Origin: Mobula hypostoma
Lineage: Eukaryota
Direction of reading: 5' to 3'
Assembly: GCF_963921235.1 (NCBI RefSeq)
Contig: NC_086097.1
Coordinates: 129,830,001-129,894,000 of the forward strand
DNA length: 64,000 nucleotides
The position numbers and the translations under genes are program-made. This document shows positions 1 to 64,000 of the stretch, piece after piece. Below the pieces are notes generated by a model. It saw only the letters and a list, made by a program, of their open reading frames with translations, was not told where the DNA came from and did not search any database. Positions within the stretch are counted from its first letter, which is position 1; every line of letters starts with the position of its first letter.

Positions 1-560
1 GTTAAGAAGACATACGGTGCATTGGCCTTCATCAACTGTAGGATTGAGTTTAAGAGCCAAGAGGTAACGTCGCAGCTATATAGGATCCTGGTCAGACCCC
101 ACTTGGAGTACAGCGCTCAATTCTGGTCGCCTCACTACAGGAAAGACGTGGAAACCATAGAAAGGGTGCAGAGGAGATTTACAAGGATGTTGCTTGGATT
201 GGGGAGCATGCCTTACGAGAATAGGTTGAGTGAATTCGACCTTTTCTCCTTGGAGCGATGGAGGATCAGAAGTGACCTGATATAGGTGTACTAGATAATG
301 AGAGGCATTGATTGTGTGGATAGTCAGAGGCTTTTTCCCGGGACTGAAATGGCTAGCATGAGAGGGCATAGTTTTAAGGTGCTTGGAAGTAGGTACATAG
401 GAGATGTCAGGGGTAAATTTTTTTATGCAGAGAGTAGTGAGTGAGTGGAATAGGCTGCCAGCAGCGGTGGTGGAGGTGGATACAATAGGGTCTTTTAAGA
501 GACTCTTGGATGGGTACATGGAGCTTGGAAAAATAGAGGGCTATAGGTAAGAATAGGTAG
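1..560 (+). mobile_element. CR1 LINE 3' fragment (ORF2 C-terminus)
   Basis: LYRILVRPHLEYSAQFWSPHYRKDVETIERVQRRFTRML, typical of CR1 ORF2 ends. Confidence 0.9.
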
Positions 561-2579
561 TTCTCAGGTAAGGACATGTTTGGAACAGCTTTGTGCCTGC
601 CTGGCATCACCTGTGTTCCCCTTGATCCTCCTACTGGCCCTCAAAATCCGTTTTCTCCTGCCCTCACATCTCTCCTCAGCATACATTTTAATCCCCTTCT
701 TACTTCTCTTGGTTCCAAACCCTCACCCTTCTGCTTCCAGTGATAATCTTGGAGTCCAAACTGCAATGTCCCCTGGGCCTCTGATTCTCTTCTAAATTCA
801 GAATAACCCCCCCATCCCCCTACTTTTGAATCTCCTCCCCTTAATTATATTTACCATGGCTCTAAGATCTTAGAGGCACTCATGCCATGTAGTAACACTA
901 CCACTATCTCAAATGGGACGAGTTAATTCAGCGGCCAGAAAAGGGGAGAAGTTGGAGCCCTCTCAGTCTCCAAAGGAGAACAGTGCAGACACCAGTAATC
1001 TGAAGCATATACAGGAAATTTTGCAAATGCTCTCCAGGTCAAATAGCATCTGAGGAGAAAGAAATGTTACCATTTCAGTCTGAAAACATTCTTCGGAATC
1101 TTTCACAGAAGGTCAATGAGCTGAAACATCGACTCTGTTTCTTTCTCTACAGGTGCAGCCTAACCCGCCGAGTCATTACTTTAGCCATCTCGGTGTATGT
1201 GCCTCACAGGGCAGCATATTTAATAACAGTCACTGAACCAACTAAAATAAATCCTGTCCTCTTGTGGCTTAAACTTTGGTGAATCATTTTATGCGTCAGG
1301 GACATTATGTGCAAGATCAGTACTGAGCCCCACAAATAATATGCGTTAATAGACAGATAACTGTCAATCATGGGTTATAAATTAATTTTAGAATTCATGT
1401 CTATAACCCAGTCAAATGATTATTGCACAGTGTGACTTTCTTAATTGCAGTCCCACAATACATTTGTAAGTGTGTGGTTATCTCTATACAAACCTAATGG
1501 ATTGATCTATCTTGGAGTCAAAGGTTCATCTTGCAGGAATTCAATTTGTAGAGCTACATTGTAAAAGCTTCTTTGAAATTCACTGTATTCTCTCCAAAAA
1601 ATGTCCTATATACACACCGATTCTCCTTACAAAAAGTTTGGCTGAGACTTGGGAAAACTGTTCAGTACCTTGACAGAATAAAGTTGATGGCCTAGAAATT
1701 GTCCTAGCTCATCATTCTGGTATTAACACAGGGCTGCAGATAACCTTGACAGTGTGTGTTGAAGTTTCATAAAAAGGGAGAGTTTCAGTTGTTGGGGAGG
1801 TGATGGGGTGTGAGTATTTGAGCAGGACTTGATTCAGAGTTGATGAGGAAGAATGGAAAAGTATAACTGGTTTGGCAAGAAATCAAGGTCAGTGTTTGAG
1901 TTACAGGAATTAAGTGTTGGGTGGGAGGATGAAAAGGGATGAAAGGTCAGTTGGGTGGGGAGGAGATACTGGGTTAAGGTACAAATAAATCATAGCTGTG
2001 TAGGAAGGGTCTACTTGGGACCAAGGTCACCAATGGAAGCTTGATAGATCACAGGGTCTGAATTTCAGAGGTTAAATTGTCAGAGGGTAGGGGGCTGGGA
2101 TCGATATGGGGTGGGGGAGGGGTTGCAGATGTATTGGTGCACTCTGTGGGATGCAGTTGTACTGAAAGACTCTAGATGACTGTGGGACTTGGCTTATGGT
2201 CATAGTCTAATCTACTGAAATGTTATATGCAAGATACAGAATTTGGAACCATTGAAACAGCAAAAAGAAAGCCTGGCTTCTTGAAGGGCCTATCCAATTA
2301 TTCCCATTTCAAAATCATTCCAATATAATCAGCTAAGACATGCTGTTTCCAATTGTTCTCACGTGCATTGAGAAAAGAAGTTATTTTCCAATTTTAAAAA
2401 AGATGAAAGTGCAATGACCTTTTATAAAACATTCATTCACTGGAAATGCATGTCACCAGGAAGGCCAGAGTTTCTTATCTGCTCTTAATTAATCTTGAAC
2501 TGACATGTTGGTCTGTTTTCAGAGGTTTTTAAGTCTGACTGGATTTGGAGATGCACGCAGGCAAGACCAAGTAAGGGCA

Positions 2580-3190
2580 CACAAGAGACTGCAGATGTTG
2601 GAGCAAGGAAAGAGCGAGATAACCAGTGGAGGGGAGAGGTGGAACAAGAGCGAGTGGGCGATGGGTGGATTCAGACGGGGAGGGAAGTGATAGGCAGTTG
2701 AAGGAGAAAGGAGAATAGGCCTGGCATCAGAAACTGGGAGGTAACAGGTGAAAGTGCCAAAATGATGGGATCTGAGGGCAGAAGCATATAGAGCATAGAA
2801 TAAAGGGAGAGAGGTGGGAGAGCAACTCGTATTCTAACTGAGCAGTGTCCAACCTGGTGACACAAAAAAAACATTGAATTTTTCAAACTTTTGGTAACTG
2901 CTGCCCATCTGTCCTTTTCCTTCTTTTTACTTTTCTCTCTCCCCGATCCAATTGGCTCCTATCACATATCTCTTTCTCCTCCCACAACCTCTCCGTGAGC
3001 TCATCACACACACACCTTTTCCACCTCCCTCTTTTTTTCCCACTTTTTCCTTCTACCTTTTTTACTGGCTATCATCCCTCTTTCTCTCAGTCCAAATAAA
3101 GGGTCTTGATGCAACATTCTGAACGTCCATTTCCTTCCATAGATGCTACTTGACCATTGAGTTCCTTCACACACTGTTCTGTGTTGCACC
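2580..3190. mobile_element. Degenerate Penelope-like terminal-repeat fragments in both orientations
   Basis: caagagactgcagatg, a purine-rich tract, and ttccatagatgct..gagttcc, as in the better-preserved Penelope copies in this window. Confidence 0.55.
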
Positions 3191-3599
3191 AGGACATTTG
3201 ATTTCTTCTTTCTTTATGATAGTCCAGTTACTTAACTGCCACTATTACTAATACTATTGTAACAGAGCTACTTAATTAAATTAATTTAACTTCCCTAGGG
3301 GCCATGTGAGATTTGAATACTTCTGCAGATAAATAGCCCATGCTATTAACTTAATCACAATGCATATTCATGACTGTATAGCTGAAACAGGTTAGGATAA
3401 CTTTGCTTTCAATCTATGAGATCAGATGTGTGCTGGAGAAGCGAACTCACAGCAACATGACTATTCCAGAAACTTCTACAATATGCCTAGAAAGATGCAA
3501 TTAGATGTCATATTGCATTAAAACAATGGGGCGAGGAGGGAGAAAACGATTGCTAACTTAAGAGAATGTATATTTTATGAAGGAGGATAGAAGAGTCAT

Positions 3600-4140
3600 G
3601 GAGTCAGACATACAGAGCAGAAGTGGGTATCTGGCCTATCCCATCTAAACTAGTTGCATTTGCCTGTGTTTGGCCCTTTTCCTTATAAACCTTTTCTATC
3701 TATGTACCTTAAGTACCTGCCTCAACCACTTCCTCTGGCAACTCAATCCATATACTGACCACACACTGGCAAAAAATTTGCTCCTTTGGCTCTTAATGAA
3801 TCTCTTTCCTCTCATCTTAAACCTATACTATCTAATTCTTGATTCTCCAACCCTGGGAAAAAGACTGTGTGTATTGAACCTATCTGTGTCCCTCACTGGA
3901 GCATTCTCCAGTGCTCCCATGACGGCAGTCCCAATCTCCTCACCTCTTTCCATGACCCAGTAGCTAGAGTCTGAACAACATCCTCATAAATCTCCACTGC
4001 ACTATTTCCAGCTTGCTGACATCTTTCCTATGGCAGGGGTGGGGTGACCAAAGCTGAACACAATATCCTAAATGCAGTCTCACCATCATCTTGTACAACT
4101 GCAGTATAGGAACATTAAAAACTGGCTTGGTCATCCCCTC
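3600..4140 (-). mobile_element. CR1 3' fragments
   Basis: LYKMMVRLHLGYCVQLWSPH..KLEIVQWRFMRML in ORF 3964-4170. Confidence 0.75.
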
Positions 4141-4196
4141 TAATTTACAGTATGTTATCTGATGCATCACAGGTTGGTATGGTAACTACCCTGCCT

Positions 4197-4756
4197 GGGG
4201 TGTATGGGGTGTCAGGGAGGGGTAGCACCTCTGGTGGGGGAACATGTCGCGTCCTTTTCAAGGTGGTTAGTCCACCTTTGGTCCCCACCTGGCACTCAGC
4301 TCTCACCTGTGACTCCTCGTAGCTGGTTGCATGCGACAGCAGCCACACCCCGGGCAATGGCTTTGACAAGCCGGCTAAACCAGTTGAGGGTAGCCGACGG
4401 GTCTCAAACCCTCGGTGAGATAGGGAGTTGTCTATCCCAGCATGTGAAGACAGACTCCGGCGGATTGAGCGGACGAGACCAATGGAAGGTCCAACGGTCA
4501 AGAAGGCGGTCTCTGCAAGCGTCGTGGAACTTGTAGAGCAGGACAAGACACAGAAGGCGTCCCGGTCATCCACTGCGCCTAGTCCCATCTCCAGCCGTCT
4601 CGACTCTGTCTTGCCACTGGATACAGATGGGAATTGGGAAGAGAGAGTGAGGCTGACGCTGCGCAACTCCCCCTCACTTAAATCCAAATCACGCGCTAGT
4701 CTCGACACCGTCAATGGTGTCGAGGTCCTCATCGACGTCGACGATGGACAAACACA
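4197..4756 (+). mobile_element. Non-autonomous RTE-like short element (5'UTR joined to a 3' end) headed by an HDV-like ribozyme
   Basis: GC/CpG-rich insert flanked by a short duplication (ctgcctg) inside the Rex1 copy; RTE-type 3' end catcgacgtcgacgatggacaaacaca; no credible protein. Confidence 0.7.
4206..4390 (+). ncRNA. HDV-like ribozyme (predicted)
   Basis: P1 ggggtgt/acacccc; P2 4300-4309/4381-4390; P3 gac/gcc; L3 begins tcctcg; gggcaa after P1'; P4 ggctt/aagcc; J4/2 ggCtaa. Confidence 0.75.
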
Positions 4757-5003
4757 CTCTGCCTGAGATTGTAAGGAACTGCAGAGAGTTATGGACACAG
4801 CTCAGCACATCAGGGAAAACCAGTCTCCCCTCCAGGAACTCTGTCTACACTTCTCACTGCCTTGGTAGAGCAGCCAACACTATTAAAGACCTCAACACCT
4901 CTCTGATTGGGTAGAAGATACAAAAGCCTGAGAGCACAATACACCAGGCGCAAGGACAGCTTCTATCTTCTATTCCATTTTTATAAGACTATTGAAATGG
5001 TTA

Positions 5004-5291
5004 AAATAAATAAATAATAATAAAGGCATCCTTCAGTCTTGCGAGACCATGGATCTGCGCCTGGAAAGTCTTCACTCTCCAGGGCGCAGGTCTGGGCAAG
5101 GTTGCCCATGCTGCAAGTCTCCCCTCTCCACAACACCAGTGTTGTCCAAGGGAAGGGCATTAGGACCCATGCAGCTTGGCACCAGTGTCATCGCAGAGCA
5201 ATGACACAACACATTGCCTCGGCTGGGGCTTGAACTCACGACCTTCAGGTCGCTAGTCCAATGCCTTAACCACTTGGCTATGAGCCCACAC
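5004..5291 (-). mobile_element. tRNA-derived SINE
   Basis: Minus-strand head tagccaagtggttaaggc..gagttcaagcc (A and B boxes), (TTA)n-like tail, 11-bp TSD tgaaatggtta at 4993-5003 and 5292-5302. Confidence 0.85.
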
Positions 5292-5459
5292 TGAAATGGT
5301 TATCAGGTATGATAAGATAGACTCTTGACCTCAGAATCTACCTCATTATGGCCAGGCACTTCATTGTCTAACTTTCTCTGTAACTGTAAGACTTCATTCT
5401 GCATTCTGTTATTGCTTCTCTCTGTACTAGTGTACCTCAAGGAAATAAATCTCTGCCAG

Positions 5460-5680
5460 ATTCTACTACTCACCCATATACTAGGGACAATTTACGGTGT
5501 CTAATAAATCCACCAATCTGCACCCCCTTGGGATATGGAAGGAAACAGGGCATCCAAAAGCAATGCCTGTGATCACTGGGTGAATGTGCAAACAGTACAC
5601 AGTACCCGAGGTCACAATCAAACTTGGGTTGCTGGAGCATCTTTACTATCAAGTTACTTGGCTGAGCCACTGTGCACATA
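5460..5680 (-). mobile_element. Degenerate SINE
   Basis: ttgggatatggaaggaaac core, similar to the copy at ~44100-44275. Confidence 0.55.
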
Positions 5681-6328
5681 TCGTCCATTAGCAATGTACA
5701 GTATCACAAAATAACGCATCCTGCTTGGCACATGCTTGCCAGCCATTTGCATTTCCTTCTGATCTGAATATCCTTTGCCCTCCTGTATTTAAACATCATA
5801 TTCCATGAACAATTAATATCTTCATTGAGGCAGCAAAGATACAAAAAGGCTATGAAAATGCATCCTTGCTGGAAATGGCAAGCAGTTGGTGGAGATGTAT
5901 GTCAGACATGGAGAGGTTTATGCAGGGGATATTAATACCATGCTAAAAGAGGTGTCATGCAGAGTGCTGTTTAACTACTTTTAATACTATTTAAAATCTG
6001 CCGATATAATTTTCGGGTACCCAGATTGCAATGGAAAACCTTCTTCCTTTTGGAGCCTTTAAACTAGTTTCAATATCATTTCCTCTGACAACATATGCCG
6101 AACAGCAACTTTAGATCTATTAATGCTATTGGCACAAATTAGCATCCAAATAATATATGCTAACAATGATTTGAATAATTATAGCTGATTAAACCTTGCC
6201 ATTCACTGCCAGCAGGAAGTTAAGCTACAGTTTATTAGAGACTGCATTTGTCATTGTTGTAATTAACTCAAAAACTGGAACTGAAACTTGCCCAGTTGAG
6301 TGCAGAGGTCTAAATTGCTTTTAGATTT

Positions 6329-6373
6329 TATGTATGTATGTATGTATGTATGTATGTATGTATGTATGTATGT
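6329..6373. repeat. (ATGT)n microsatellite
   Basis: Direct observation, about 11 units. Confidence 0.95.
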
Positions 6374-6633
6374 GATGAAAGGTCATAATACAAGACAACT
6401 GGAGCTAAATTGCTGGCATATGTGACTGCTCTGCTGTTGGCTTTGGGTTACGTCAAAGGGACTCTACAGTACAGTACAACAAACTTGCTGAGCGAGGACA
6501 GTAGGCAAAAAGTTGGGTCAAAGAGGTCAGCTTTCAGATATGTGTAAGGAGAAAAAGAGTAGAAAGGCAGATCACACACACCAAAGTTGCTGGTGAACGC
6601 AGCAGGCCAGGCAGCATCTCTAGGAAGAGGTAC

Positions 6634-6669
6634 AGTCGACGTTTCGGGCCGAGACCCTTCGTCAGGACT
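6634..6669 (-). ncRNA. Minimal type I hammerhead ribozyme in the Penelope terminal repeat
   Basis: agtc-CTGACGA-agggtctcggccc-GAAA-cgTC-gact, with palindromic ACGT in stem III. Confidence 0.85.
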
Positions 6670-7555
6670 ACCTGAAAGAAGAGCTAGTAAGAGATTTGAA
6701 AGTGGGAGGAGGAGGGGAGATCCAAAATGATAGAAGACAGGAAGGGGAGGGATGGAGCCAAGAGCTGGACAGTTGATTGGCAAAGGGGATATGAGAGGAT
6801 CATGGGACAGGAGGCCTAGGGAGAAAGAAAAGGGGGGGGGGAACCCAGAGGATGGGCAAGGGGTATCGTGAGAGGGACAGAGGGAGAAAAAAGAGAGAGA
6901 GAAAAAGAATGTGTGTATATAAATAAATAACGGATGGGGTACGAGGGGGAGGTGGGGCATTAGCAGAAGTTTGCGAAGTCAATGTTCATGCCATCAGGTT
7001 GGAAGCTACCCAGACGGAATATAAGGTGTTGTTACTCCAACCTGAGTGTGACTTCATCTTTACAGCAGAGGAGGCCATGGACAGACATATCAGAATGGGA
7101 AAGGGATGTGGAATTAAAATGTGTGGCTACTGGGAGATCCTGCTTTCTCTGACGGACAGAGCATAGGTGTTCAGCGAGATGATCTCCCAGTCTGCGTCGG
7201 GTCTTGCCAATATATAGAAGGCCACATCGGGAGCACCGGACGCAGTATACCATCCCAGCCGACTCACAGGTGAAGTGTCACCTCACCTGGAAGGACTATC
7301 TGGGGTCCTGAATGGTGGTGAGGGAGGAAGTGTAAGGGCATGTGTAGCACTTGTTCCGCTTACACGGATAAGTTCCAGGAGGGGGATCGGTGGGGAGGGA
7401 TGGGGGGGACGAACGGACAAGGGAGTCACATAGGGAGCGATCCCTGCGGAAAGCGGGGGGGGGCGGGGGAAGGGAAAGATGTGCTTAGTGGTGGGATCCT
7501 GTTGGAGGTGGCAGAAGTACAGAGAATAATATGTTGGACCCGGAGGCTTTCAGTT

Positions 7556-27940: not shown

Positions 27941-28267
27941 AACAGATACTCGCTTCTGAAAGAATTCCATCAACCTTGAACCGAGTGTGGTGGTCAAGAC
28001 CTACCATTTATCACTAGATGCTGGGAAGAAGTTCCTGCATTTAGCCCCGTGCTGTTAAGCTTTGCAGTTATTAACAATGGGTGAAACATGTGCATAAAAC
28101 TTCTAAAATATTTTTCTTACATAAATATGCTTCTAAAGATATTGGGCATATTTAAAGTGGCGATGGAAAAATGGCCAAAAGATCAAGGAATTGAAAGTTA
28201 TATGTAACCGGGCAGAGAGGAGTTGAGGTCAGTATAGATTAACCCTGATCAGACTGAAACCTCCTCC

Positions 28268-28602
28268 AAGAGGACCACAACCTTGCTGCGGCTTGAAGGC
28301 TACGTGCCTCAACGGCCCAGAGAGTTACGTTGGCTGGAGCCAAGGCGTTACGTTTTGGCTCCTGGTAGGGTCACCCATGCCAAACAGGTAGAGGACAGAC
28401 TAAAAGTGGTCCACCGGTATTCCATTGTTATGGAAACAGCACAGAAGAATCCTTCTGCACCTGATTGCGATGCTGCTCCAGAGTCTACACCCGGATCTTG
28501 CATCACTGACAGTAGTGAAAACCGAGAAGAAGCTACTGACATGATGAACACCACCAGAGATGGAGGATCTTCATTGCTATACTAAACGCCAGCAGGCAAT
28601 AA
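28268..28602 (+). mobile_element. Short RTE-5'UTR-derived element
   Basis: GC-rich and structured: ggagccaaggcg/cgttttggctcc hairpin, ggtagggtcacccatg motif, ggaccac/gtggtcc pairing. Confidence 0.5.
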
Positions 28603-32257: not shown

Positions 32258-32950
32258 TTCAGCCAATGATTGGTGTGTCAGGGCTGACCTGGACAGGAAA
32301 GGCAGTTTCCCGGAGCAAATAGCTTTCTCAACATTGCGTCCAGATATAATCGTATGGTCTGACACCAGTAGGGAAGTGGTTATTGGTGAACTCACAGTCC
32401 CCTGGGAAGACAACATCGATGAAGCCCATGAGCGCAAGTTAACCAAGTATGCAGAATTAAGATCAGAGTGCAGAGACAGAGGGTGGAAGGTCTCATGCTA
32501 TCCATTCGAAGTAGGCTGCCGTGGGTTTATTGCGTTCACTTTCCAGAAGTGGCTGCGGACCTTGGCTTCACTAGAAGAGAGATCAAGTCAACCAGCAGGG
32601 TTGTAGCTGAGGCAGCAGAGAAAGGATCAGCATGCGTGTAGACCAAGTACGTCCAGAGGGGCAGATAGTCAGACAGTGTATACATATCTTGCAAACCCTT
32701 CAGTAGTTGCATAGACACCTGAAGAGCAGACTATCTGTTGGATGGAAGTGACTGATAGAGGCAGATGCCAAGTTTTTAAGCTCACCAGTGGGAGGTGGTG
32801 CTTTAGCACTGCTGGCCCACCACCTCGAGGGAGTCTTGATCATAAGCGGGCCGAAACTCCTGAAGACAGGTGGTGGATCAACTGATGATCCCACTGGTGA
32901 TAGCACAGGACAGTTAACATCTCAGTCCACGTGTATTTTGTAACTCTGAT
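32258..32950 (+). mobile_element. Hero-clade (restriction-like endonuclease) non-LTR retrotransposon, 3' fragment
   Basis: LRPDIIVWS..VIGELTVPWEDNIDEAHERKLTKY..PFEVGCRGF, a PD-(D/E)xK RLE domain, followed by a 3'UTR. Confidence 0.9.
32829..32895 (+). ncRNA. Predicted non-circularly permuted hammerhead ribozyme, copy 1
   Basis: ggagTC-ttgatc / agcggg-cc-GAAA-ctcc / gatcaa-CTGATGA-t-cccact. Confidence 0.7.
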
Positions 32951-54399: not shown

Positions 54400-54490
54400 C
54401 AGTTTATCTCAAGCCCAACTGGTCCTGTTTACAGCAAATTTAGCAACAAAATTTGCTGTAAACAGGACCAGTTGGGCTTGAGATAAACTG
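54400..54490. repeat. Perfect inverted repeat, 42-bp arms with a 7-nt spacer
   Basis: 54400-54441 is the exact reverse complement of 54449-54490; spacer agcaaca. Confidence 0.97.
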
Positions 54491-55117: not shown

Positions 55118-55220
55118 AGGGAGTCTTGATCATAAGTGGGCCGAAACTCCTGAAGACAGGTGGCAGATCAACTGATGATCCCACTGGTGATAGCACATCT
55201 TAGTCCATGTGTATTTTGAA
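55118..55220 (+). mobile_element. Very short Hero 3'UTR fragment containing permuted hammerhead copy 2
   Basis: Near-identical to 32828-32940; stem II agtggg/cccact is fully paired. Confidence 0.85.
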
Positions 55221-61529: not shown

Positions 61530-62785
61530 GCAAAACTAACAGTGTGCCTATTCAACACAATCATCCTATCAAAACTTATCATTAAGCTTCAAGACCTGGA
61601 CCTCTGTATCTCCCTCAGCAAATGGATACTGGTCTTCCTCATCAACAAGCCTCAATCAGTGAGGATTGATAATAAATAACATCGCCTCCTTGTTGATCAT
61701 CAACACAGGTGCACATCAAAGTTATGTGCTTAGCCCCACGCTCTACTCTCCATACACCCATAAGTTTGTGGCTAAGCACTGCTCCAACGCAAGCTTCAAA
61801 TTTTGTCAATGACATTACTGCTGTTGGACAAATCACAAGTACTGATGAGTTAGCTAACCAGAGCGAAATAGGAGACCTGGTTCAGTGGTGCCACAACAAC
61901 AACACACAACATCAGTGAAACAGAAGAGCTGATTGTTGACTTCAGGAATGGGAAGGAAGGTGAACTGTGCCAGTCTACATTGAGGGATCACTGGTAGAGA
62001 GAGTCAGCAGCTTTAAATTCCAGGGCATTAACAAGAGCAGAACTGGGCCCAGCACGCAGTTGCAATCACAAGGAAAGCAGGTCACCAAACACTCTAACAA
62101 ATTCTATGTTTGTACTTTTGAAAGTATCCTGACTGGTTGTATCATGGTGAGGTATGGCAATTTGAATGCAAAGGAATGTAAGAAGCTGCGGAGAATAATG
62201 AGCTGTGCTCAATACATCTTGGAGTTAACCCTCCCTGCCATCGGTAATATCTAAATGAGGCAAAAGTATGGATATGTACAGACCATAATGGAAACGTATG
62301 TAAAGGATGGAGAGTTATTGAATGGTTTATTGTATATAATTTTATTTTTGAATAAAGTATATTTTGAAATAAAAAAGTATCTAAATGAGGTACTGCCACA
62401 AGAAAGCAAAATATGCCATCAATGATCCTGGCATTCTGGGCAATGCCATCTTTTCACAGCTACCATTAAGCAGTGGCTATAGAAGCCTTAAGTTCCACAC
62501 CAGCAGGTTCAAAAACAGCTCCCTGCCTTCAAGTATTCAGTAGTTCTTGAACTCACTGTCAAAAACCCTAATCATAACAGCATTATTAGCAACATTATGA
62601 CGACTGATCACCTTGCACAAAAATGAACTGTTTCTTTTTGTTTTAATTGAGTTCTTTCTTGTAAAATTTATGATTTTCTTATGAATACAGCTTATATGAT
62701 GGAATACACCTGTGATACTGCTGCAAATAAATTTTTAATTGCACCTGTGCGTACATGTAGTTATGCCAATGACAATAAACTTGAC
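61530..62785 (+). mobile_element. Rex1/Babar LINE (RT to 3' end)
   Basis: FVNDITAVGQIT..LVQWCHNN; ELIVDFR; VERVSSFKF.G; ESILTGCIMVRYGN; tail gacaataaac. Confidence 0.88.
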
Positions 62786-62809
62786 TTTTTTTTAAAACAG
62801 AAGCTATAG

Positions 62810-63050
62810 AATGCAATAGCAGGGAGGGCAGTAATTAGCTGGCACTGTGTTTGATACAAACTCCACTGACCAGCATCCTTCAACAGGTAGGAGCAGATGG
62901 GCAGTGATTTGGCCACCACTGCCGGCCCACCAACTGGAGAGTGTCATGGTTAAGGGTCGAAAACACTCTGTGAAGGTTGGGAGCCACCCGATGACATTTG
63001 CTCCTGGCTGAAGGCTACAGTTACTTTATAAGGTATCTGGAGAATGCACC
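62810..63050 (+). mobile_element. Hero-type 3'UTR-like segment of a second family, containing permuted hammerhead copy 3 (62938-62998)
   Basis: cactgccggcccaccaactggagagtgtc is homologous to cactgctggcccaccacctcgagggagtc in copy 1. Confidence 0.7.
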
Positions 63051-64000
63051 CTAACAGGTGTATGTAACAAGTAATCTCTGTTTTGTACCAGTGGCTTCCA
63101 GGAAAGACTGGATTGCAACCGAGGAAGGTCAGTGACGCTGGAGAGACAGCTGACCTCCAGGAAAGACTGACACGGGCTCACAAGGCTAGCAACCTTGTGG
63201 GCAGCACTCGCAAGAGGGAACCACTCAAGCTACGATTGAACACAAAGAGCAATACCCTCAGAGTCTCCTGAGAGGGAGGGGAGAGGATGAGAGACGCAAC
63301 GGGACGATATACCGGCAATGGCCAGGACAGGAAACACAACTACAAGGAAGCTAAAGCAAACAACACTGACTGGAGAGGAATTCACAGTAAGGTGTCATTG
63401 CAGGAAAGTCTGCAAAAACATCAGAGGGCTCAAAAGATATACCAGAGCAGGTCTAGATGTGGATCAATGGTGACCCAAGTGCAGCACATGGACTTGGTGT
63501 CCGGTGAGACGAAGGAGAATTCCAGCCAGGAAGCATCCCACAGAGCTGAAGATCTCTCCGCACTCGAGTAGCCTCAGCACCGAACAACAGACCAAGTGAG
63601 TTCCCCTTTGGCTACCCCAATCCATTCATCAAGGAAAGGCAGGATCAAATGGCCTAGATCGTCAGACAACGTCACCTGGATGCAACCAAATAGGAGGGAA
63701 AGGGAGGTTCGTCGCTTGAGAGGTGAATTACAGACGCTCAACAAGAGGTTTAAAACCAGCTCACTGACCAAAAGAGAAGGTTTCAAGGACGTAACCAGTA
63801 TGCTGCGGGAAAAGCTGTGCAAACTCTGGAGGGCGGAACATCTACGACAGCAAAGAAGGAAGAAAGAGAAAAGGCGAGCGCAGTTTGTGAGAGATCCATT
63901 CAGTTTCACCAGGACTCTTCTCGGCCAACAAAAATCTGTTATACTATCCAGTTCGAAGCCAGAGGGAGAGGAGTTCCTGTGGGAGGCACACAGTGACCCA
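63050..64000 (+). mobile_element. Hero-clade retrotransposon 5' region (N-terminal zinc finger), running off the window
   Basis: CHCRKVCKNIRGLK/IYQSRSRC; QEASHRAEDL; RIKWP; PNRRERE..LREKL..RAE..FVRDPFSFTRTLLG..HSDP. Confidence 0.85.

Follow-up and report, generated by a model that had tools for sequence, protein, structure and literature searches.

A permuted hammerhead-like module at the conserved tail-to-head seam of Hero retrotransposon units

Near the end of a 64,000-nt stretch of the Mobula hypostoma genome (NC_086097.1, positions 129,830,001 to 129,894,000; hereafter the window), a hammerhead-like module stands in front of the N-terminal zinc-finger region of a Hero LINE, which raises the question of whether the two met by chance or form a junction between head-to-tail units that are processed by self-cleavage. 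The gap between the module and the zinc-finger-like motif at 63387 is ~385 nt, close to the ~400 bp given in the first-pass annotation of this DNA, and window self-BLAST and protein mapping agreed with it in placing no other element between them. At 32.8 kb a module (32783-32899) does lie 3' of an endonuclease fragment (32268-32669), as that annotation had stated. A descriptor scan recovered three hammerhead-core modules in the window, with predicted C17 at 32835, 55125, and 62945, against 0.43 modules in each shuffled window. The relevant features are as follows.

32268-32669, + strand: restriction-like endonuclease (RLE) end of a 5'-truncated, frameshifted copy of a second Hero subfamily
32783-32899, + strand: intact module copy (C17 32835, GAAA 32853, CTGATGA 32882; z = -4.65)
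55118-55218, + strand: short copy of the 32.8 kb subfamily, lacking P0, hairpin H, and stem IIa
62889-62907, + strand: final codons and stop of an upstream 5'-truncated Hero ORF, at the 5' junction of the insertion (from depth, other copies, and locus L065)
62890-63005, + strand: permuted hammerhead-like module, degenerate copy, predicted cut after C62945
Module parts, + strand: P0 62890-62899; hairpin H 62900-62923; stem IIa 62924-62928; helix X 62929-62935
Module parts, + strand: kink-turn GA 62937-62938; III' 62939-62944; C17 62945; stem I 62946-62950
Module parts, + strand: II' 62954-62958; GAAA 62959-62962; III 62963-62968
Module parts, + strand: kink-turn bulge plus GA 62969-62973; X' 62974-62980; I' 62983-62987
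Module parts, + strand: CUGAnGA (CCGATGA in the 62.9 kb copy) 62988-62994; P0' 62995-63005
63006-63087, + strand: spacer (from loose ends and same-family comparisons)
63088-63172, + strand: 5'UTR array of short hairpins with a ~21-nt period and purine-rich loops (from an 18-sequence alignment and covariation)
63247-64000, + strand: N-terminal part of a frameshifted Hero ORF, with the zinc-finger-like motif from 63387; exits the window

The window itself holds only fragments of the Hero ORF, and its end falls within the 63247-64000 ORF of the 62.9 kb copy. The ORF ending at 62889-62907, which L065 shares, doubles as the 5' strand of P0 and the beginning of hairpin H. The 62.9 kb module is degenerate, with CCGATGA in its core and an additional A in GAAA; in host contigs, position 62989 is T in most other genomic copies, i.e., CUGAnGA is intact, and the additional A is absent in 12 to 22 contigs per DNA run. 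The first-pass annotation had treated the modules at 32.8 and 62.9 kb as one: the hammerhead core is indeed common to both, but their sole shared blastn match is 32 nt at 81%, and on sequence comparison they belong to different Hero subfamilies. The 32.8 kb copy ends at ~32940, and its endonuclease fragment is related to proteins of fish, echinoderms, and amphioxus that carry an RT; 32268-32555 shows 69 to 72% identity to brittle star and amphioxus proteins and about 50 to 57% to teleost proteins, a pattern that may possibly reflect horizontal transfer. Pfam searches with three window fragments recovered 0 families, and Rfam searches of the window and seven loci recovered neither a hammerhead nor another relevant match. 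Elsewhere in the window, a perfect 42-bp inverted repeat with a 7-nt loop (54400-54490) gave only subthreshold Rfam microRNA matches, and a GC-rich, repeat-like region with several short hairpin-like motifs (28250-28600) is, by eye, possibly the 5' end of another LINE.

Genomic copies in the host were followed by aligning public contigs of four runs, of which X1 and X4 represent one sample, possibly the window's own source, and X18, perhaps RNA, carries no weight on expression, to 62701-63600. Depth in the three DNA runs is 14 to 39 at 62791-62880, that is, single copy, and 12,500 to 107,000 at 62881-63090. The repeat begins at ~62889 rather than at 62810, where the module and 3'UTR-like segment had been thought to start, and 62810-62888 was rejected as ORF-end sequence, being single-copy flank by depth. 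In other copies the C terminus of the Hero ORF precedes 62889 (27 to 46 contigs per DNA run); the segment therefore belongs to the family itself, as its ORF end and 3'UTR. In host contigs the tail is, roughly, covered at least tenfold more deeply than the 5'UTR. The junction, followed at position 63081, is covered by 10 to 13 contigs per DNA run, every one with a letter other than the window's, and the depth across it is 45 to 79% of that just within the 5'UTR, a rough hint and not a copy number. The first-pass annotation had made its reading depend on the junction not being unique to this locus, and the host contigs and relatives show that it is not unique.

Searches with an endonuclease alignment recovered 79 loci in metagenome contigs (the best 80 of 337 being confirmed), whereas viral and prokaryotic collections yielded an uninformative 1 and 7 loci, respectively. 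Endonuclease identity among 29 nonredundant loci is 39 to 84% (median, 52%). The hallmarks of the Hero clade of the R2 group, namely, a single ORF in which an RT is followed by a PD-(D/E)xK restriction-like endonuclease (PMC3636483), are present in the homologs P0044 and P0023 and in locus L065. By eye, the RT motifs of P0044 and L065 are far closer to HEROTn and HERO-1_BF than to Utopia, R5, and R4 as given in the supplement of PMC7650587. Protein mapping placed an ORF end, 3'UTR, 5'UTR, and ORF start in tandem in 11 loci drawn from the best 80 of 337, and the core lies upstream of the 5'UTR start motif in 18 of 21 related loci, a set enriched by 3'-end selection. Among nine loci chosen by endonuclease alone that have the motif upstream of the matched ORF, six have CUGAnGA within 130 nt of it, two carry their own 3'-end sequence before the 5'UTR, and one (L008) has flank there. 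L065, the nearest relative found, with 79% and 78% identity over the window element (62918-63998), both starts and ends with the same module, in keeping with the terminal repeats proposed earlier. Because short-read and metagenome contigs may be collapsed repeats, a partial tandem in one of them does not stand for a single locus, but a junction of this sequence must be present all the same. Recurring in many divergent families, the junction is not the product of chance: the segment is a conserved Hero unit seam, made up in turn of an ORF end, a hammerhead-core module, a short spacer, and the hairpin array of a 5'UTR. L008 also holds, at 1-7504, two Hero copies head to head, ~370 nt apart.

We then consider what the module is. 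The test set consisted of 50 loci with at least 450 nt after the endonuclease match, again from the best 80 of 337, and in 43 of these Hero-like loci a sequence-only pattern of the hammerhead core (CUGAnGA, GAAA, and UH, where H is not G) was found after the endonuclease; the reverse strand gave it in 1 of 50 and the ORF in 4 of 64. The 32.8 kb copy conforms to this core and the 62.9 kb copy deviates from it. Among the seven loci missed, the module of L035 and L064 lies farther 3', the CUGAnGA block of L044 falls at the start of the contig, L015 breaks off within the module, L030 and L055 are degenerate, and L059 is without one. L035, L044, L064, and L021 make up a subgroup with 3'UTRs of 600 to 700 nt before the module. 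The blocks are ordered S-G-C, not CGS, GSC, or SCG as in hammerhead types I, II, and III. A MAFFT alignment of 40 sequences (38 loci and 2 window copies) was obtained from 48 candidates by removing 7 near-duplicates and 2 with a longer helix X and adding the 62.9 kb copy; L037, L043, L075, and the 55 kb copy had been omitted earlier. Across stems I and II, the two core pairs of stem III, and C3-G8, 94.6% of 504 cells are paired, with compensatory changes in 11 of 13 pairs, whereas slid controls reach 32 to 47%. The aligned regions were chosen by a parser that scored these stems; therefore, the test of stem II with sequence-only anchors (see below) carries more weight. Position 17, which the parser left free, is A, C, or U, with G in 0 of 51, and all four bases occur at position 7. 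The G10.1-C11.1 pair is retained in 36 of 40 sequences and positions 3 and 8 are paired in 40 of 40, including a double change to U3-A8 in two sequences of one family (L050:3767-3852 and L053:1552-1637). In L003 and L009, which form a related group, U3 stands with G8, possibly an intermediate to U3-A8. A C3G/G8C rescue has been reported for a Penelope hammerhead (PMC11167929).

In most modules, the partner strand of stem II is found 20 to 21 nt 5' to the predicted cut site. When sequence-only anchors were used, an upstream stem II of five Watson-Crick pairs was found in 17 of 27 nonredundant loci (swap mean, 2.4; maximum, 8 in 500), and a downstream one in 0 of 27. The canonical type-SGC stem II, which joins the bases after CUGAnGA to those before GAAA, was rejected: these bases are 45.5% paired, no better than slid controls, and C11.1 is paired in 6 of 40 sequences. 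Therefore, the published type-SGC fold cannot form; the covariation bears out the earlier description as a permuted hammerhead, though with a topology other than that of the published type SGC. Helix X, which connects the free ends of stems I and II in the manner of the type-SGC interaction helix, averages 6.2 bp, as against a swap mean of 4.15 and maximum of 4.96. In 18 of 25 nonredundant loci (swap mean, 2.5; maximum, 8 in 200), A9 leads into P0, hairpin H, and G10.1 without a linker, the strict four-way junction being missing in the other 7; such a linker-free junction would keep A9 next to G10.1, replacing the A9-G10.1 bond. Of 54 modules, 38 (20 of 30 nonredundant) have tandem G-A pairs beside a 3-nt bulge where X meets stem III, and in 31 of the 38 the bulge opens with a purine; the signature is missing in the other 16. 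By way of control, a bulge of 0 nt occurs in 8 of 30 and bulges of 1, 2, 4, and 5 nt in 1 of 30 each. The strict signature is absent from L035 and L064, the members with long 3'UTRs whose module was read. By definition, a kink-turn joins two helices through a 3-nt bulge (RNN) and the tandem G-A/A-G pairs that come after it (PMC11702757); the X/III bulge matches this and would give a sharp bend, and the putative kink-turn is possibly protein bound and hence regulated. The minimum free energy fold contains the nested helices P0, H, X, and III only, the complete, pseudoknotted fold being predicted from covariation. From these arrangements, we infer a hammerhead of the non-circularly permuted class (SGC/CSG/GCS) that is opened between A9 and G10.1, a split of the core that the P0/H four-way junction and the kink-turn make plausible.

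A structure that looks like a hammerhead might instead be a noncatalytic docking site for the RT. Such a site would be expected to be retained, as the module is, in the very abundant tail-only copies, and the loss of the type-SGC fold would be no obstacle to it. However, stem II formed with the upstream strand, the strong covariation, and the G10.1-C11.1 pair argue against docking; catalysis would lead one to expect the exclusion of G at position 17, the free position 7, and the U3-A8 double change; and the separate hairpin array, beside the position of the 3' ends, is a better docking candidate. We consider docking quite improbable and self-cleavage by the module, as judged from these sequence constraints, highly probable.

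The ends of the copies indicate how the seam might be used. In seven same-family comparisons, dispersed copies end without poly(A) 9 to 14 nt before a CCAGTG motif (-9 to -14); less similar copy pairs (85 to 92%), whose match stops at -28 to -41, were excluded as 3' ends. Host 3' ends cluster at 63071-63074 (-14 to -17), with diverse flanks in 29 to 33 contigs per DNA run. The CCAGTG motif begins the hairpin array, which in 18 sequences is 89.7% paired with compensatory changes in 9 of 13 pairs, and 63088-63172 is a candidate binding site for the element's protein. Fixed 3' ends upstream of the array, without poly(A), suggest internal initiation. Between the array and the ORF start, 63180-63245 holds a second conserved-looking 5'UTR motif in several loci. 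At the other end, the 5' boundaries vary: the 55.1 kb copy (55118-55218) starts 7 to 8 nt before the predicted cut site and the copy at 62889 starts 56 nt before it, L050 starts 39 nt short of the array, and five contigs have boundaries 555 to 1,940 nt upstream; a minus-strand copy in L008 begins within the module, just before CUGAnGA. Among the ~9 boundaries inspected and the best-supported loose ends, no 5' end falls at cut site +1. Copy starts are thus scattered, and a simple model in which a linear unit RNA is released and then copied is therefore unsupported.

A stretch of ~12 to 14 nt at the junction is conserved, being absent at copy 3' ends and present in junctions and 5' ends. It is identical in the independent copies L003/L009 and L040/L053 and similar in the window and L065, and no indels were seen near 63074-63088 among the best-supported rows of host contigs. 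These observations bear on whether the junctions arose by template jumps between linear RNAs, or by insertion beside existing copies or chance adjacency. Template jumping is known for the R2 reverse transcriptase; moreover, L051:85-7330 joins two long Hero units, 60 to 76% identical, head to tail by a normal junction, and reflects template switching between families or else a chimeric assembly, and the plus-strand copy in L008 has no module before its 5'UTR and starts just before the hairpin array. Against such an origin stand the junction stretch, absent from 3' ends yet the same in independent copies, the lack of indels in those rows, and the junction depth (45 to 79%, rough as it is), and we regard it as very improbable. 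From the copy boundaries and the seamless modules, the template runs without a break through the cut site and through the position of the 3' ends.

We lean slightly toward a chain of events in which the module cleaves, religation yields a circular unit RNA, and the RT copies this circle from an internal start. The anatomy of the copies implies that a transcript of a copy with a module at both ends would be cut twice; the two unit ends, held by pairing of P0, II, X, and III, would be favored for ligation to a circle. The Hero protein would bind the hairpin array and cDNA would begin 12 to 17 nt upstream of it, and an RT going round the circle once or more would produce short copies of the tail alone, complete units, and partial tandems like that at 62889. 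The chief rival keeps the ribozyme active but makes uncleaved read-through RNA from tandem arrays the template, cleavage having another role, such as release from a host cotranscript, cap-independent translation, or limiting activity. It accounts for inserted modules that are all seamless across the cut site and for the lack of copies starting there, and L051 shows two long units head to tail; the Penelope element PAc uses unprocessed RNA in vitro (PMC11167929), and translation-promoting ribozymes have been reported for retrotransposons and RNA viruses (PMC13725137). However, it requires true multimers as donors: the 62.9 kb copy has ~200 nt of the upstream unit behind single-copy flank, L050 has only ~25 nt, and the transcript of such a short-overhang copy has the array downstream of a start site at its 5' end alone. 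We hold the uncleaved template to be rather unlikely, though a serious contender, and retain the circle as the working model.

In the literature searched, no link of Hero to a hammerhead or to tandem units was found; an earlier description, for example in Repbase reports or patents, is possible. Our verdict is that the module is a new topological hammerhead variant in a new host class, within an element of Penelope-like architecture. With somewhat less assurance than we attach to the chain itself, we propose that Hero LINEs may be autonomous elements that replicate via a ribozyme-made circular RNA, with a seventh hammerhead arrangement in which a four-way junction takes the place of A9-G10.1 and a kink-turn closes the fold. 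If this is true, animal genomes carry a non-circularly permuted ribozyme, non-circular permutations move from metatranscriptome RNAs to animal genomes, where current Rfam models miss them, and an RLE LINE has arrived independently at the Penelope/retrozyme way of life; the structural assumption that CUGAnGA runs straight into stem II would also be broken. The analysis provides a testable model of RNA processing and initiation for the Hero clade, a group of RLE LINEs related to R2 that are under screening for gene insertion (PMC13580325), and a large natural alignment for the role of hammerheads in terminal-repeat retroelements, a question raised by Penelope elements as well.

Among known ribozymes, the nearest are the non-circularly permuted hammerheads of type SGC/CSG (HRIMA-1) described by Eckert et al. 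in 2023 (PMC10085705). The Hero module matches type SGC in the S-G-C order and in the helix joining stems I and II. In contrast, its block C is split, with CUGAnGA not followed by stem II, which Eckert et al. assume to be impossible (PMC10085705), and it adds the P0/H four-way junction and the kink-turn signature, the sharp bend of type SGC having been flagged in that paper as an open geometric problem. Eckert et al. report no permuted form from the genomes of known organisms except one bacterial GCS candidate (PMC10085705), whereas the Hero module resides in animal retrotransposon DNA. R2, likewise an RLE LINE with an RNA of self-cleaving type, has a 5' HDV-like ribozyme (PMC3774820); that of Hero is predicted, is of a different class, and sits at the ORF end and unit seam, and Hero has terminal direct repeats and no rDNA target. 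Retrozymes are units bounded by hammerheads, and their circular RNAs are regarded as substrates of reverse transcription (PMC4918200; PMC7229834; bioRxiv 10.64898/2026.07.22.740005). Hero units are bounded by hammerheads too, their circle being proposed, but retrozymes are nonautonomous and the animal ones have circularly permuted (type I) hammerheads, unlike the autonomous ~3.7 kb Hero unit. Closest in organization are the Penelope-like elements with pLTRs and hammerheads (PMC4209133; PAc, PMC11167929). Hero resembles PAc in its partial tandems, in a hammerhead at the unit seam, in fixed 3' ends fitting internal initiation, and in binding determinants downstream of the start, for which the array is the candidate in Hero; for PAc, uncleaved RNA is reported as the dominant template in vitro, with no reads ending at the cut site (PMC11167929). 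The PAc hammerhead has canonical stems and overlaps the ORF start (PMC11167929), whereas that of Hero overlaps the ORF end and is non-circularly permuted. Penelope further has a GIY-YIG endonuclease and a telomerase-like RT, in place of which the Hero homologs show an RLE motif and an R2/L1-like RT, that of one homolog being most like R2 among solved structures; Hero encodes a LINE-type RT with a C-terminal restriction-like endonuclease. The Hero element would thus function in the manner of Penelope without belonging to that group.
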